DNA of 64,000 nt from Bradymonadia bacterium (GTDB taxonomy: Bacteria; Myxococcota_A; Bradymonadia; UBA7976; UBA1532). Below the pieces are notes generated by a model, which was given only the letters and a program-made list of their open reading frames with translations, was not told the origin of the DNA and did not search any database. The stretch spans positions 32,001-96,000 of the forward strand of contig JBKAGE010000035.1 in assembly GCA_046290225.1 (NCBI GenBank). Reading direction: 5' to 3'. This document shows, piece by piece, positions 7,982 through 13,961 of this stretch (positions are counted from its first letter, which is position 1; every line of letters starts with the position of its first letter). Made by a program: the position numbers and the translations under genes.

Positions 7982-9313
7982 CAATGGCGCGGGAGACCCC
8001 TTCCTTTAGGGAGAGGATGGATAGCGCCGCTCCAAGTTGGTGAGTGGTGCAAGCCCTCTATACAGAGAACGAATGAGCAGGTAAATTAGGCAGGTGGACA
8101 TCAAGCGCGCATACCGATTCAGGTTCTACCCTGGCGACGAGCAGGCGAAGCAGCTTGCCCAGACGTTTGGGTGTGTGCGTTTCGTCTATAACTGGGCACT
8201 CAGGCTACGCAGTGACGCCTGGAAGCATCACCAAGAGAGCATCAGCTACGGCCAGTCCTCCGCAGCCCTCACGGCCCTCAAGAAGATCCCAGAGTATGCG
8301 TGGCTCAAAGACGTGAGCAGCGTGCCCTTGCAGCAGACGCTGCGCCATCTCAACACAGCCTTTGGCAACTTCTTCTCCAAGCGGGGGCGTTATCCGAGCT
8401 TCAAGCGCAAGCACGGGCCTCAACCAGCAGAGTACACCCCCAGCGCCTTCAAGTGGGATGGTCAAACCCTCAAGCTCGCCAAGATGAAGCATCCCCTCGA
8501 TGTTCGGTGGTCGCGTCAAGTGCCCAAGGGCGCTCGGGTAACCACGGTGACCGTCTCCAGAGACGCCGCGGGGCGCTATTTCGTGTCCATGCTCGTCGAC
8601 GACGCCGTAGCACCCTTGCCCAAAGTGAAGGGCCAAGTAGGCATCGACCTGGGGCTGACACACTTCGCCACGCTGTCTACTGGCGAGAAGGTGGACCCCG
8701 CCAACGTATTGAGAAAGCACGAGAAGAAGCTGGCTCGCCTACAGCGACTGTTGGCCAGGAAAAAGAAGGGCTCGAGCAACCGAGCGAAAGCCCGCACCAA
8801 GGTTGCCCGCTTACATGCCCGCATCGCAGACATACGCAGGGACTTCCTGCATCAACTCTCTACTCGGCTCGTGCGCGAGAACCAAGTGATTGCCGTGGAG
8901 AGCTTGTCTGTGAGCAACATGTTGCGCAACCACAGGCTCGCCAAATCAATCGCCGACGCCAGCTGGTCGGAATTCTTGAGACAGCTTCAATACAAATGCC
9001 TGTGGTACGGGCGCACCCTCGTTGCCATCGACCGCTGGTTGCCCTCCAGCAAGCGATGCTCAGAGTGTGGTTATACCCACAAGAAGATGCCGCTCCATGT
9101 CCGGTCTTGGCAGTGCTCCGAATGCGGCGCCGCCCACGACCGCGACATAAACGCAGCACGCAACGTTTTGGCCGCCGGGCTGGCGGTTTCTGCCTGTGGA
9201 GAGTCTGTAAGACCCATCTGCGCTTCCGCGTAGGGAGGCACGGCTTGTTGAAGCAGGAAGCTCCCCGAAGTGACTCGGGGAATCCCCGTCCTTTAGGGCG
9301 GGGAGGATGTCAA
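7982..9313 (+). mobile_element. IS200/IS605-family non-autonomous element (tnpB only, IS1341-like)
   Basis: Subterminal hairpins CCCCTTCC-TTTA-GGGAGAGG (7997-8016) and CCCCGTCC-TTTA-GGGCGGGG (9284-9303); right end closes with TCAA (9310-9313); no tnpA. Left boundary is inferred. Confidence 0.85.
8094..9233 (+). CDS. tnpB: RNA-guided endonuclease TnpB
   Basis: AYRFRFYP...FGCVRFVYN N-terminus; RuvC motifs GIDLG, AVESL, DRDINAA; zinc finger CSEC...CSEC. Confidence 0.97.
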   Translation: MDIKRAYRFRFYPGDEQAKQLAQTFGCVRFVYNWALRLRSDAWKHHQESISYGQSSAALTALKKIPEYAWLKDVSSVPLQQTLRHLNTAFGNFFSKRGRYPSFKRKHGPQPAEYTPSAFKWDGQTLKLAKMKHPLDVRWSRQVPKGARVTTVTVSRDAAGRYFVSMLVDDAVAPLPKVKGQVGIDLGLTHFATLSTGEKVDPANVLRKHEKKLARLQRLLARKKKGSSNRAKARTKVARLHARIADIRRDFLHQLSTRLVRENQVIAVESLSVSNMLRNHRLAKSIADASWSEFLRQLQYKCLWYGRTLVAIDRWLPSSKRCSECGYTHKKMPLHVRSWQCSECGAAHDRDINAARNVLAAGLAVSACGESVRPICASA

Positions 9314-9333
9314 TTGAGATGTTGTGACTCTGG
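9170..9333 (+). ncRNA. Putative TnpB omega/reRNA (scaffold overlapping tnpB 3' end and right end; guide from the 3' flank)
   Basis: Inferred from established TnpB biology plus hairpins at 9263-9281 and 9284-9303; 5' limit is a guess. Confidence 0.6.
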
Positions 9334-9407
9334 CCAGTGGAGCCGACGAGAGCAAGGCCTGAGGGGCCCGGGCACACCGCCCCATCATCTACGTCAAAAA
9401 AACCCCT

Positions 9408-9435
9408 TTCACCCTTCGAACAGGCATGCTAGACA
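9408..9435 (+). promoter_or_regulatory. Candidate sigma70-type promoter for the retron-like RNA
   Basis: TTCACC (9408-9413), 16 bp, TGc-TAGACA extended -10 (9427-9435); predicted +1 near 9441-9443 coincides with the first inverted-repeat arm. Confidence 0.4.
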
Positions 9436-9442
9436 CCTGTAC

Positions 9443-9696
9443 AGCTCTTTGAAGGCAGTCCAGGTCTAGCCATCTGGGCGGCGTTGCGCCGTCCTGGAGA
9501 ATGCTTGGTCATGCCACACGAGGAAGGCTATTTCAGAATGTCTCTGATCCCCGTCGCGCACTACTCGTCGGGGCGTCCTGAGGCAACTCCGCCAATCGCT
9601 GTTACGCACCCGACGAGTAGTGCGCGACGGGGGAGAATTCAGTGAGCCTTCCACGTCCCAGGTCTTGAAGTAGCGATTTGCTGCCCTTCGAGAGCT
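9443..9696 (+). ncRNA. Retron msr-msd-like non-coding RNA (Mx162-like), without adjacent reverse transcriptase
   Basis: Flanking inverted repeat 9443-9458/9681-9696; small stem-loops 9460-9477 and 9478-9492; long hairpin 9522-9652 with perfect 24-bp stem 9549-9572/9609-9632; motifs shared with Mx162 as recalled. Confidence 0.8.
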
Positions 9697-9734
9697 TGCC
9701 CAGCGCCGACTCAATCAGCACATGGGCATTTACG

Positions 9735-9775
9735 AAGCCGCTTTAGAGTTCACACTCCGAAGCGGCTTTTGTGTA
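9735..9775 (+). terminator. Candidate intrinsic terminator after the retron-like RNA
   Basis: AAGCCGCTTT (9735-9744) pairs with GAAGCGGCTT (9759-9768), inner GAGT/ACTC, running into TTTTGTGTATT. Confidence 0.55.
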
Positions 9776-9835
9776 TTACGGCTGCGAACATGCCCACATG
9801 GGCACTCCCAGAACAGCGGCCGGAGATCACCCACC

Positions 9836-10300
9836 ATGCATGACGACGACCAGCAGCTCTGCGCCGGGCCCCCAGAGGGCGAGACCGGTCGAGTGCTCGC
9901 CCTCGACATCGGCGAGCGCACCATGGGCATGGCCATCAGCGACGAGCAGCGCATCATCGCCCAGGGCCTCGACACCATCCGGCGCACTCGCATGGACAAA
10001 GATCTCGCCGCCCTCGCCGAGGTCATCCGTGAGCACGAGATCGTGCGCATCGTCGTCGGATGGCCTCTGCGGCTCAACGGCAAGCCCGGCATTCAGACCC
10101 AGAAGGTGGCCAAAGTGGCAGCCGCCATCGAAGCGCGCTTCGGGTTGCCCATCGACCGATGGGACGAGCGCCTCACCACCGTCGCCGCCCAGCGGGCCCT
10201 CATCGAAGGGAACGTGCGTCGGGAGAAGCGACGGCAGGTGGTGGACAAGGTGGCCGCCACCCTGATCTTGCAGGGCTACCTCGAAAGGCGCAGCACGTGA
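9836..10300 (+). CDS. yqgF: YqgF/RuvX family RNase H-fold nuclease (pre-16S rRNA processing)
   Basis: LALDIGERTMGMAISD, VVGWP, WDERLTT, VDKVAATLILQGYL; GGAG at 9822. Confidence 0.95.
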   Translation: MHDDDQQLCAGPPEGETGRVLALDIGERTMGMAISDEQRIIAQGLDTIRRTRMDKDLAALAEVIREHEIVRIVVGWPLRLNGKPGIQTQKVAKVAAAIEARFGLPIDRWDERLTTVAAQRALIEGNVRREKRRQVVDKVAATLILQGYLERRST

Positions 10301-11292
10301 TGCGCCTCATCAAGCGGCTGATTCTGCTCGCCCTCGTCGGCGGTATCGGCATCGGCGCCTATGGCTATGTGCGAGTCACCAACTACCTCGACACCGCCAT
10401 CGGTGCCGCAGGCACCATCGAGACCGTGAAGATCCCCAAAGGGATCACCTTCAAGCGCGCCGTGGCGCAACTCTCCGAGGCCGGCGTCGTCACCGATCCG
10501 ATGGTCTTCGAGTGGTACGCCCGCATGGTCGAGCAGACCGACGTCAAGGCCGGCACCTACGCCATCGACCTGGGCACCACCCCCCGCGATCTGCTCGAGC
10601 AGCTGGGCAAGGGCGGGCTGATCCCGCAGGTGAAGATCACCGTGCCCGAAGGTCTCAACAAGTGGGAGATCGCCGATCTGCTCAGCGAGAAAGGCCTCGT
10701 GGACCGGGCGAAGTTCCTGCAAAAAATCGACGCAGAGAAGCTCGAAGGCCGTTTGTTTCCGGACACCTACCAAATCAGGAACGATGCCACCCTCGACCAG
10801 ATCGTCGCTCGCCTCACAGGGCGCTTCGACGAGGTCTTCTCTGCCACCATCAAGGGCGAGCTGCCCGAAGGCATCGAGAGTCCCGAGGCGTTGCTGACGC
10901 TCGCCTCCCTCGTGGAGAAAGAAGCCCGGGTCGACGAGGAGCGCCCCATCATCGCCCGGGTGTTTCTGAACCGCATCGCCAAAGGCATGAAGCTGCAGAC
11001 TGATCCGACCTGCGTGTACGGCGCCGAGCTCTACACACAGAAGCCCCACCCCCGGTACTGCAAAGACCCGGCGAATCGCTACAGCACCTATGTCATCGAT
11101 GGTCTGCCGCCCTCACCCATCGCCAACCCTGGCGCTGCAGCCATCAAGGCCGCCATGCACCCTGCAGAAGACGATCGGGCGAAGACGCTGCTCTTCTTCG
11201 TGGCGAAGCAGGATGGCTCAGGCCGCCACGTGTTCACCGCGGACTACAAAGATCACGTGCGGGCGGTGAACCGATACCTGCGGGGCAAGTAG
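10300..11292 (+). CDS. mltG: Endolytic transglycosylase MltG
   Basis: N-terminal TM, ITVPEG, LEGRLFPDTY, LASLVEKE, LQTDPT, GLPPSPIANPG; start overlaps yqgF stop. Confidence 0.95.
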   Translation: MRLIKRLILLALVGGIGIGAYGYVRVTNYLDTAIGAAGTIETVKIPKGITFKRAVAQLSEAGVVTDPMVFEWYARMVEQTDVKAGTYAIDLGTTPRDLLEQLGKGGLIPQVKITVPEGLNKWEIADLLSEKGLVDRAKFLQKIDAEKLEGRLFPDTYQIRNDATLDQIVARLTGRFDEVFSATIKGELPEGIESPEALLTLASLVEKEARVDEERPIIARVFLNRIAKGMKLQTDPTCVYGAELYTQKPHPRYCKDPANRYSTYVIDGLPPSPIANPGAAAIKAAMHPAEDDRAKTLLFFVAKQDGSGRHVFTADYKDHVRAVNRYLRGK

Positions 11293-13961
11293 AGCAGCAC
11301 CAGCAGCCACAAAGCCCAGGGAGAGCCTGCCCCCGTGGCGCTGCACCCACCGGAGCCCCCCGAGAGGCTCTGGGCGTCGATCAAATCAGAGAAGCCATCG
11401 TCGTTGGAGTCGGGGTCGAGGGGATCGAGGCCCAAAGCCAGCTCGTCGGCATCTGAGAGGCCATCACCGTCATCATCCGTATCGAGGCCGTCACACACAC
11501 CGTCACTGTCGGTGTCGATGACGTTGCCTTCGTCATCGACCGTGCACGCATCGGGGATCTCCACCTCCGTGCCGTCGATCACGCCGTCACCGTCAGCATC
11601 TCTGTCGAGGGCATCACACACGCCGTCGCCATCGCTGTCGACGAACTCACCCCCACACGCCGCCTCGAGCTCATCATCGACGCCATTGCCGTCCGCGTCG
11701 TCGTCGAGCGGGTCGCACACGCCGTCGTCGTCGCTGTCGACGAAGGCGCCCCCACAAACCTCAACGAGGCCATCGTCGACGCCGTCACCGTCAGCGTCGT
11801 CGTCGAGGGGATCACACAGACCATCACCGTCGCTGTCGACGAACTCGCCTCCGCATGCGGCTTCAACAGCGTCTTCCACACCGTTGCCGTCCGCGTCGCT
11901 GTCGAATCGATCGCAGGTGCCATCGTTGTCGGTGTCGACGAACACCCCACCACAGGCTTGCTCCACCGAATCGTCGACGCCATTGCCGTCCGCATCGCTG
12001 TCGAGCGGATCACAGGTGCCATCGCCATCGTCATCGAAGAACTCACCCCCGCAGGCCACCTCGATCATGTCGTCGACGCCATCGCCGTCCGCATCTGCAT
12101 CAAGGGGATCGCAGATGCCGTCACGATCTGTGTCCACGATGAAGCCCCCACAGGCAGCGGCGAGATCATCGTCGACACCATCACCATTCGCGTCCTCGTC
12201 GAGGGGATCACAGATGCCGTCACCGTCGAGATCGTTGAAGCCACCACCACACGCCTGCTCCAACGCATCGTCGGTGCCATCGCCATCCGCGTCATCATCG
12301 AGGGCGTCGCACAGACCATCTTCATCGGTGTCGACGAACGCTCCGCCACAGGCAGAGATGAGGGCGTCCTCAGTGCCATCCCCGTCCACATCTGGATCAA
12401 GCGCGTCGCACACCCCATCTTCATCGGTGTCGACCAGCTCGCCCCCACAGGCTTCCACCAGGGCGTCGCTGACGCCATCACCGTCTGCGTCACCATCGAG
12501 GGGATCACACACCCCATCACCATCTGTGTCGACGAACTCGCCCCCACAGGCCGCCGCCACCCCATCATCGACGCCGTCACCGTCAGCGTCGCTGTCGAGC
12601 ACGTCGCACACGCCGTCGTCATCGGCATCTGCAGGGGTGTCGTCGGGTGCCGCAGGATCAGAGCCACAGATGCGCTCCAGCTCGTCGGAGGCGCCGTCTT
12701 GATCACCGTCGAAGGTGATGCACAGCGAAGGCTCGTCCATACAGTTCCAGCCCATCTCGACCGCGCACAGGTTAGAGCAGCCATCGCCTGCATCCAGATC
12801 CCCGTCGTCGCACCGCTCCAGGCCCTCTATGCGGCCGTCACCACAAGCGCTGTCGGACTGCAGCGCCCCGATGTCGCAGAAGGGTGTCGGCCGCGGGGTG
12901 CCGACCTGATCACTGACGATGCGCTCTCCCGTGGCATCGCGACAGTCGCTGGCGCTGCGGGCGGGGCTGTCTGCCCGCAGCGGGTAGCCCCGCACGCCCT
13001 CGATGCTCTCGTACGCCCCGATGCCGATGCTGAAGGTGAGGATGTCGGCCCCGACGGTGGGGCAGTTGGTGGTGGCCAGGAACATGTTCTGGCCCAGAGA
13101 GTCGATCCCGCCCACACAGGCGTCGGGGTTGCCTCCGGTGTAGTTGCCCACCAGGCGCACGGTAGAAGACACCCCAGCAGGGCTCTGGTGCACCAGCGCG
13201 CCGCCATCAGGCCCGGCGGTGTTGCCCACGAAGGTATTGTGGGACACCCGCACCTCCACAGGGCTCGCGGCGTCGGTGAAGATGGCCCCGCCGCCGACAT
13301 CGGCGGCGTTCTCGGAGAATGTGCTGTTGACGACGTGTGTGATGCCCCCGCTGGCGGCGACAGCAGCGCCGTTCGTGGCGCGGTTGCGGCGCAGGGTGGT
13401 GTTGCTGATCTCGAGGCGAGAGAGGCCTCCTGAGATGGCCAGTGCACCGCCCACCTCGGCGCGGTTGCCCACCAGGAAGCAGTCGGTCATACGCACGTTG
13501 CCGTTGTTGACGGCCACAGCGCCGCCGCGATCCGCCCCCTCGGCCCAAGGGTCACCTTGGGTCAGGGTGAGTTGCTCGAAGCTCACCTGGGCGTCATGAA
13601 CCTCCACGATGCGGCTCAAGCCCTCACCGGAGATCGACACACCCGGACCGCCCCGGATCGTCAGCTCGTCCCGAACGTCGAGATCGCCACGCAACGCGTC
13701 ATCATCAGATCCCTGGAGCGCGATGACATAGGTCCCCTCGGAGAGCAGGATTGTGTCGGCGCCCGATCCTGCAGGGCACTCACCTTCGTCGACTCCGATG
13801 GGGGCGTCGGCGTTGGCGGCGATGACGGCCTCTCTCAAAGAGCACATGCCATCCTGGCCGTTGAGCACGTCTGCGGTGGTGGTCACCTCGATGTCCAGGG
13901 CCAGGGCGGCCTGGGGTGCGCACACGGCGCCGAGGAGGATGAAGCGCTTGATCGAAGGCAT
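11253..13961 (-). CDS. CSLREA-domain surface protein with Asp-rich Ca-binding repeats and MYXO-CTERM-like tail
   Basis: Signal peptide, CSLREA, beta-helix region ending CDIGA, CGDG..EG.E.CDDG Cys repeat, 33-aa DxDxDG.CD repeats, GGCS...WALWLLVLL..RRR tail. Confidence 0.85.
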   Translation of the reverse strand: MPSIKRFILLGAVCAPQAALALDIEVTTTADVLNGQDGMCSLREAVIAANADAPIGVDEGECPAGSGADTILLSEGTYVIALQGSDDDALRGDLDVRDELTIRGGPGVSISGEGLSRIVEVHDAQVSFEQLTLTQGDPWAEGADRGGAVAVNNGNVRMTDCFLVGNRAEVGGALAISGGLSRLEISNTTLRRNRATNGAAVAASGGITHVVNSTFSENAADVGGGAIFTDAASPVEVRVSHNTFVGNTAGPDGGALVHQSPAGVSSTVRLVGNYTGGNPDACVGGIDSLGQNMFLATTNCPTVGADILTFSIGIGAYESIEGVRGYPLRADSPARSASDCRDATGERIVSDQVGTPRPTPFCDIGALQSDSACGDGRIEGLERCDDGDLDAGDGCSNLCAVEMGWNCMDEPSLCITFDGDQDGASDELERICGSDPAAPDDTPADADDDGVCDVLDSDADGDGVDDGVAAACGGEFVDTDGDGVCDPLDGDADGDGVSDALVEACGGELVDTDEDGVCDALDPDVDGDGTEDALISACGGAFVDTDEDGLCDALDDDADGDGTDDALEQACGGGFNDLDGDGICDPLDEDANGDGVDDDLAAACGGFIVDTDRDGICDPLDADADGDGVDDMIEVACGGEFFDDDGDGTCDPLDSDADGNGVDDSVEQACGGVFVDTDNDGTCDRFDSDADGNGVEDAVEAACGGEFVDSDGDGLCDPLDDDADGDGVDDGLVEVCGGAFVDSDDDGVCDPLDDDADGNGVDDELEAACGGEFVDSDGDGVCDALDRDADGDGVIDGTEVEIPDACTVDDEGNVIDTDSDGVCDGLDTDDDGDGLSDADELALGLDPLDPDSNDDGFSDLIDAQSLSGGSGGCSATGAGSPWALWLLVLLYLPRRYRFTART

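Follow-up and report, generated by a model that had tools for sequence, protein, structure and literature searches.

A detached template RNA of the type XIII retron type and the distant reverse transcriptase that probably uses it in a Bradymonadia bacterium

Retrons have been defined as contiguous cassettes of a non-coding RNA (ncRNA) with a reverse transcriptase (RT) (PMC7736814; PMC10849725), and a recent survey of these systems covered the 10 kb at either side of the RT (PMC13712802). In the classification of Mestre et al. (2020, PMC7736814), type XIII retrons combine an RT of clade 10 with SWIM/DEDE and WGR/HEAT-ARM partners, and the members named are Mxa1/Mx162, Mxa2/Mx65, Sau1/Sa163 and Nex2/Ne144. 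A review of retron elements gives TAGC as the commonest priming context and describes Mx162 as an msDNA of 162 nt with a CAGC priming context (PMC6868368). The same review covers Retron-Nex1 (Ne160) of Nannocystis exedens (Lampson and Rice 1997, as cited there), several msr/msd repeats that have no RT closer than a kilobase. It presents them as copies that arose by duplication and insertion, and a distant RT has been suggested for them (PMC6868368). In engineered retron arrays, the so-called multitrons, one RT uses arrayed ncRNAs and the msr also works when provided in trans (10.1101/2023.07.17.549397), so that use of a template RNA in trans is feasible. In the literature surveyed, as far as its text was accessible, no trigger or defence role for type XIII retrons was found. 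The full-text literature, in which few subscription or older papers are covered, likewise yielded no description of a natural, clade-wide, detached and multi-copy type XIII RNA; some of the RNAs studied here may appear in the supplement of PMC7736814.

The RNA described here is encoded in a window of 64,000 nucleotides from a Bradymonadia bacterium, in which an msr-msd gene of the type XIII retron type lies at about 9442-9700 (Table 1). It resembles type XIII retron RNAs by its a1 and a2 arms, short msr hairpin(s), long msd stem and TAGC motif, and the RNA model built in this analysis also recognises RNAs adjacent to type XIII RTs. It differs from them in that RNA and RT are located on separate contigs, that it has a predicted promoter and terminator of its own, and that the RNA is present in several copies with different stems.

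Table 1. Features of the template RNA gene and its neighbours (window coordinates).
Feature	Position	Strand	Basis or details
IS200/IS605 tnpB (379 aa), neighbour	8094..~9313-9333	+	Pfam OrfB_IS605, Cas12f1-like
Predicted sigma70-type promoter	9407..9435	+	-35 9407-9412, 17-nt spacer, extended -10 9427-9435, +1 near 9442
a1 arm, outer inverted repeat	9442..9468	+	pairs with 9671-9696; different yet complementary in copy B and relatives
Predicted branching (priming) guanosine in TAGC	9469	+	motif conservation, known priming context
msr: short hairpin 9476-9494 and linker	9470..9510	+	invariant pairs, RT-adjacent relatives
msd, predicted to be reverse-transcribed into about 160-170 nt of DNA	9503..9670	-	from template G9670, start inferred from the a1/a2 register; 3' end approximate
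Hypervariable 24-bp stem and conserved 36-nt loop region	9549..9632	.	arms 9549-9572/9609-9632, a perfect inverted repeat
a2 arm, outer inverted repeat	9671..9699	+	pairing with a1
Predicted intrinsic terminator: hairpin 9735-9768 and U-rich tail	9735..9777	+	inverted repeat, T run
yqgF (RuvX) 9839-10300 and mltG (YceG) 10300-11292, neighbours	9839..11292	+	Pfam

The original prediction of a retron-like RNA, made from the letters of this DNA, was borne out. The region of the element folds with z = -8.3, with none of 100 shuffled sequences equally stable, and the perfect 24-bp repeat sits within a longer stem, which as DNA folds at about -55 kcal/mol. The outer inverted repeat, 9443-9468 with 9671-9696, forms a duplex of -27.2 kcal/mol (z = -4.0 compared to shuffles). 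For the window copy, the minimum free energy structure is an alternative fold that competes with the canonical a1/a2 fold and is 1.9 kcal/mol more stable; in the wider family the a1/a2 duplex has z < -2 in 41 of the 67 copies that could be anchored, 37 further copies not being anchored. Among 13 aligned copies, two-sided changes were found at 36 of the 59 pairs, a number reached in none of 500 shuffles, and the covariation score is 0.50, compared to 0.15 for shuffled alignments and 0.10-0.13 for slid partners, for a structure that was derived from the same 13-copy alignment. A search of the element in Rfam gave no match at the gathering threshold, and the matches listed by E-value were rejected as generic hairpins or the end of a tnpB-associated RNA.

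In the msr hairpin, all seven pairs are unchanged throughout the 13 aligned copies, and a hairpin of this type is also found in RT-adjacent type XIII RNAs. The TAGC motif at 9467-9470 is kept in most copies, with those of G015 and G023 departing from this priming context. At these two loci (L010 and L012) the bases around the priming site are altered on both arms with retention of the pairing, and A replaces G at the next base, which possibly reflects a shifted or adenosine branch point. In another relative (L009 in G013) the copy is intact and contains a further msr hairpin, which the window copy lacks. A9468 pairs with T9671, and in some planctomycete copies a TCA/TGA compensation occurs at the same spot; copying is therefore predicted to start at G9670, giving a product of about 160-170 nt. 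This predicted msDNA length is similar to that of Mx162 (Retron-Mxa1 of Myxococcus xanthus) as described in the review. The element has its own candidate expression signals. The original prediction had proposed both a promoter and a terminator: a -35 and an extended -10 are indeed present, with the spacing of the homologues (TTG..17 nt..TGnTA, upstream of a1), but the match is weak, and the proposed hairpin with its U-rich tail exists as well, but a consensus scanner called neither a promoter nor a terminator at the window locus. Among the 59 non-operon copies, a loosely matching promoter pattern is found ahead of 41 and a terminator-like GC hairpin with a T run behind 28, both counted without a shuffle control.

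The genome contains a second copy, which the original reading, limited to the window, had overlooked. This copy B has a 217-nt core at C35:465068-465284, 424 kb from the window copy (copy A), and neither a profile search nor a covariance search found a third. The cores of A and B differ at 21 positions, 20 of which are in compensated base pairs: 16 form eight compensated pairs of the 24-bp stem, four form two compensated pairs of the lower stem (9537/9639 and 9543/9634), and the remaining one is located in the loop. The flanks of the two copies are wholly different, yet within either copy the 5' and 3' flanks pair with each other, the a1/a2 duplex of copy B having z = -3.7 compared to shuffles. 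Like the other detached copies, copy B is found at an unrelated intergenic site with unrelated neighbour genes.

Downstream of the window copy lie yqgF and then mltG, as originally described. It had also been suggested that the vicinity of YqgF might matter, msDNA maturation requiring RNase H activity. The two genes are adjacent and on the same strand, but at the window locus only, since YqgF neighbours just this one of the 100 RNA loci examined, the other detached copies have different neighbours, and a terminator-like hairpin separates the RNA from yqgF. In the relatives, the RNA is not conserved upstream of yqgF: five of the five yqgF loci checked carry neither the RNA nor an RT. That the RNA is coupled to YqgF as an RNase H-like maturase is thus hardly credible. 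On the far side of mltG, a 902-aa ORF on the minus strand (window 11253-13961), with many acidic DxDxDG-type repeats, converges on this gene.

Upstream of the RNA gene, the first description had missed the IS605 tnpB element. Its right end lies at about 9313, 94 nt 5' of the predicted promoter, and no tnpA was seen beside it; tnpB-type ends are also present at C35:144137 and C64:12894, the common sequence extending only up to 9313. The genome holds other small elements. About 29 of its 62 listed long hairpins are MITE-like elements of about 175 nt with terminal inverted repeats of 19-25 nt, spread over many contigs (e.g., C41:18675-18966 and C71:56956-57132). There are two dense tRNA arrays (C20:227-1226 and C37:77269-79067), a tRNA called by ARAGORN with a CUA anticodon (pyrrolysine-type) (C14:27995-28067) and a selenocysteine tRNA (C75:162683-162772).

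An IS605 element at some 100 nt distance, and the fact that there is no same-genus genome to compare, leave some room for a local accident, either the recent loss of an RT gene that had separated msd from yqgF or a misassembled junction. Several results oppose this. Positions 9599-9840 and 9795-9980 are represented, with 5 and 2 substitutions respectively, in contigs of two other sequencing runs, whose overlap across the junction of RNA and yqgF argues against a misjoin; the yqgF loci of the relatives are free of any RT; a second RT-less copy exists in the genome; and detachment recurs throughout the family. An accident at this locus is therefore highly improbable. Each of six sequencing runs contains at most 10% of the sequence words. 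From an RNA run (X6), a 296-nt contig matches both ends of the RNA of a relative, and a 241-nt contig (depth 2.6) is near-identical; in one metatranscriptome there are two short contigs on this stretch. Such contigs are strandless, come without a DNA control and may be DNA, and they are therefore no evidence of expression. Assemblies can lose the RNA gene, as seen in G009, in which the hairpin is collapsed (L151), and in G065, in which contig C124:1-59 begins inside it. Carriage by phages or plasmids was not apparent, as no match to the RNA was obtained in viral contigs, 72,556 plasmids and 50,697 phages.

The genome (8.58 Mb, 99.4% complete) encodes two RTs in all according to Pfam RVT_1, both on contig C79. 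There is none near copy B and none in the window, in agreement with what had been concluded from the open reading frames. Both are assigned to RT_XIII by PADLOC, with SWIM_XIII and WGR/HEAT-ARM_XIII neighbours, and they belong to two complete type XIII operons that converge tail to tail (C79:170952-193017; L004 and L234). The first operon has the order WGR-WGR/HEAT-SWIM-RNA-RT1, and the 537-nt gap upstream of RT1 (C79:178175-179797) contains a structured RNA that scores 38.6 bits to the RNA model, on the basis of which RT1's RNA and the window RNA are considered homologous. The second operon consists of a 1076-aa head gene without a Pfam match, a 2145-aa HEAT/ARM gene (HEAT-ARM_XIII), a SWIM gene (SWIM_XIII, E 1.1e-179) and, directly behind and overlapped at its start by the latter, RT2 (C79:180081-181442). 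RT2 is intact, with NAxxH, LPQG, YADD and VTG all present, and matches PADLOC RT_XIII with E 1.6e-170. Neither this operon nor its head matches the RNA model. The genome-wide search for a retron RT without its own msr-msd, proposed at the outset, has thus produced RT2. The window RNA and RT2 presumably resemble Mx162 in the msr hairpin, the ends of the msd and the RT N-terminus. The Mx162 RNA is contiguous with its RT.

Of the 21 RT2-type loci of the class, 17 have the SWIM stop between -13 and +7 nt of the position at which the RT is estimated to start. Larger SWIM-RT gaps in six RT2-type loci were considered as a location for the RNA and rejected, a profile search being negative and the gaps containing repeats or unrelated hairpins. 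The operon heads of the genome studied (G000) and of G013, G021, G015, G023 and G029 do not match the RNA model either, and each of the latter five genomes has one RNA copy, located away from the operon head. In the genome studied, a structured gap of 330 nt with hairpins precedes the first gene of the RT2 operon (C79:193017-193349) and is longer than in four relatives, in which a promoter-like site abuts the start; a hidden RNA in this gap was rejected, as no match to the RNA model was obtained. A different kind of connection was seen between the window stem-loop and RT2, 9563-9585 being antisense to C79:180589-180611 with 21 of 23 matches to the LPQG codons. In other genomes tested, such an antisense match to the own RT was not reproduced, and it is treated as probably due to chance.

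The RNA family and the RT2 clade occur together. In a phylum sample of 151 genomes, the RNA was found in 10 and RT2 (E <= 1e-100) in nine, all nine of which have the RNA, six of the 10 RNA-positive genomes having been used in training the RNA model. Class-wide, 112 genomes gave an RT2-type RT in 21, the RNA in 20 and both in 17. The three genomes with only the RNA are one with an RT2 fragment at a contig end, G266, in which the match is weak (44.8 bits) and no SWIM or RT2-type match was obtained, and G166. The last of these, which is also the tenth RNA-positive genome of the phylum sample, was rejected as an RT-free counter-example, as HEAT-HEAT-SWIM genes lie downstream of its RNA and the contig ends 5 nt after the SWIM match. 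In 34 genomes from other lineages, taken from named records, 15 of the 16 RT2-type genomes have an RNA match (one partial). From the other 18, one had an RNA match and then proved to carry an RT2-type RT, one with an RT2-clade RT was matched only in a deeper search, and 16 were without a match. These wide searches scored 16-72 candidates per genome, and the counts include non-independent kin. The RNA was not found, deeper searches included, in the RT2-type genomes G014, G028, G070, G232 and G382; in the first two the operon head lies off the contig, which is not an explanation for the other three.

The RNA could be functional without being the template of RT2, by serving RT1 as a template, by titrating an RT as a decoy or through an RT-independent role. 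The recognition of RT1's RNA by the RNA model and the weak match in G266, which is without RT2, would fit such a role. It is nevertheless unlikely: RT1-type RTs have their own RNA in cis, five class genomes with an RT1-like RT as the sole strong match have no genome-wide match to the RNA model, and the RNA is present in genomes in which the sole strong match is RT2-type (e.g., G136 and G022). Moreover, wherever the RNA has a cis partner in other genomes, this partner is the RT2 operon. RT1 may conceivably make some use of the RNA alongside RT2.

Several arrangements in cis are found in these lineages. In G355, a member of the RNA family is located directly 5' of an RT2-clade RT (127.7 bits); for the RNAs seen 5' of 14 other type XIII RTs, among 28 loci examined, the scores are 26-59 bits. 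Secondly, the RNA heads a HEAT-HEAT-SWIM-RT operon in 13 genomes, among them those of Desulfosarcina variabilis and Gemmata algarum, and its distance to the RT downstream is about 12 kb where both are on one contig. Three more class genomes likewise have it at the head of the RT2 operon. Thirdly, in G022 and at a metagenome locus (L194) it lies just downstream of the RT. Of 46 metagenome loci, five have the RNA at the operon head, one has it after the RT and 40 are without an operon gene in the available DNA, as are nine of the 11 metagenome loci with full 6-kb flanks. In a quick tree, the RT2-type RTs fall into a single clade (41 rows, SH-aLRT 100). In the family of the genome studied the RNA is fully detached, and several relatives have exactly one detected copy.

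Detached copies might also be inert or selfish duplicates of a retron RNA that was once in cis, similar to Retron-Nex1/Ne160, which would leave RT2 effectively orphaned. Such RT-less msr/msd repeats are known and have been read as the result of duplication or of insertion by a distant RT (PMC6868368), the detached copies are scattered over unrelated intergenic sites, and the genome is rich in small repeat elements. The copies studied here, however, carry the msr, the a1 and a2 arms kept with compensation and the priming motif, often together with promoter- and terminator-like signals. A retrotransposed origin from the msd only does not fit, because cDNA of the msd alone could not carry a1, a2 and a promoter. 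In addition, 20 of the 21 differences between A and B are compensated, RT2 is intact and no other candidate RNA was found for it, and the single detected copy of several relatives is a detached one. Inert duplication is accordingly very unlikely. As far as the review's description allows a comparison, the likeness to Ne160 lies in the several RT-less msr/msd repeats, while the copies here differ in being complete, compensated and associated, in different phyla, with one particular RT clade and its operon; in this family, detached copies are moreover the only RNA found for the RT2-type RT.

The reading that is favoured, as it was among the possibilities raised originally, is that of a split retron: the window RNA, a detached type XIII template RNA, is probably used in trans by RT2 of contig C79. 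The observations on which it is founded are the structure of the element and its compensated changes, an intact RT2 lacking an RNA of its own, the co-occurrence of the RNA with the RT2 clade, and their linkage in cis in other lineages. By its RT operon this retron is a member of type XIII and by its RNA it departs from the contiguity with the RT; it appears as a split, often multi-template retron. As judged from the sequences, the RNA would be transcribed alone from its own predicted promoter, from about 9442 to the terminator. The a1 and a2 arms would pair, with priming at G9469 and copying from G9670, and the RNA would be bound by RT2 made from the distant operon, resulting in a branched hairpin msDNA of a predicted 160-170 nt. 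The complex of RT2 and msDNA may then be loaded into the HEAT-HEAT-SWIM machine that is encoded upstream of RT2, in which the double-stranded stem could function as a sensor, by analogy with other retrons. In the likely history, an RNA that stood at the operon head gained independence as a transcription unit, and this unit was then moved and duplicated at the DNA level.

The number of RNA copies varies. There are 15 in G. algarum, another genome has 17, and three more have 9, 6 and 6; some copies stand in tandem as pairs or triplets. Arrays of three RNAs are present at L006 (G004), L197, L209, L214 and L224, with copies about 260-380 nt apart and stems that are all different. The 24-bp segment is Watson-Crick paired in 2439 of 2472 pairs (98.7%; 103 of 104 distinct copies) in the register picked for best pairing, the remaining pairs being 4 G.U, 11 A.C and 18 other. 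The a1/a2 duplexes, counted in the 67 anchored copies with 37 left unanchored, include 95 G.U among 1310 pairs, and the scarcity of G.U in the stem compared to these duplexes is as expected of a DNA hairpin. The sequence of the stem is hypervariable: between copies, stem arms are on average 36% alike. The stems of G. algarum, for which 12 of the 15 copies were parsed, are 34% alike and the flanks 77-78%; among the 9 copies of G075 these values are 29% and 90-93%. Copies of G075 and G076 that adjoin the same decarboxylase gene have different stems as well, and one cross-genome pair shares 92%. In 66 dereplicated stem arms, GTAC occurs 15 times compared to 3.9 expected, to which shared ancestry could contribute, and AGTA/TAGT are enriched, other palindromes not clearly so. 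With regard to a CRISPR-like store of spacers, in which the variable segment would match phage DNA, one of about 100 stems, that of the window, was compared with 2.9 million viral contigs, and none of them contained it exactly.

For Retron-Eco1 (Ec86), a short sequence in the msDNA stem has been described as the sensor for a phage DNA methyltransferase (10.1101/2023.08.16.553469), and by extension different stems of fixed length could be different baits, although Ec86 has another retron type and effector than type XIII. It can tentatively be proposed, with somewhat more doubt than confidence, that one RT-HEAT-SWIM machine is combined with several msDNAs, each with a different fast-changing 24-bp stem, as a library of baits comprising two in this genome and up to 15-17 in planctomycetes. 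Each stem would then plausibly detect a different invader protein that binds, cuts or methylates DNA. Neutral turnover of a stem selected for pairing only, together with template switching, would give a similar appearance. Template switching during replication also yields perfect stems, without msDNA. The multitrons mentioned above share with such a library one RT and several msr-msd units with different payloads; they are synthetic editing constructs, whereas the copies here are natural, dispersed or in tandem (two to three), with a variable stem of fixed length. A natural RT that takes several templates, with a stem of fixed length that can be exchanged, is of interest to the design of multiplexed retron tools.

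Searches for contiguous cassettes would miss the detached copies as well as the copies at operon heads about 12 kb away, and free-standing template genes explain RTs that seemingly have no RNA. In the same way, the RT-less Ne160 repeats gain a testable reading. Lastly, the natural variants of the stem offer a way to investigate what type XIII msDNA senses.
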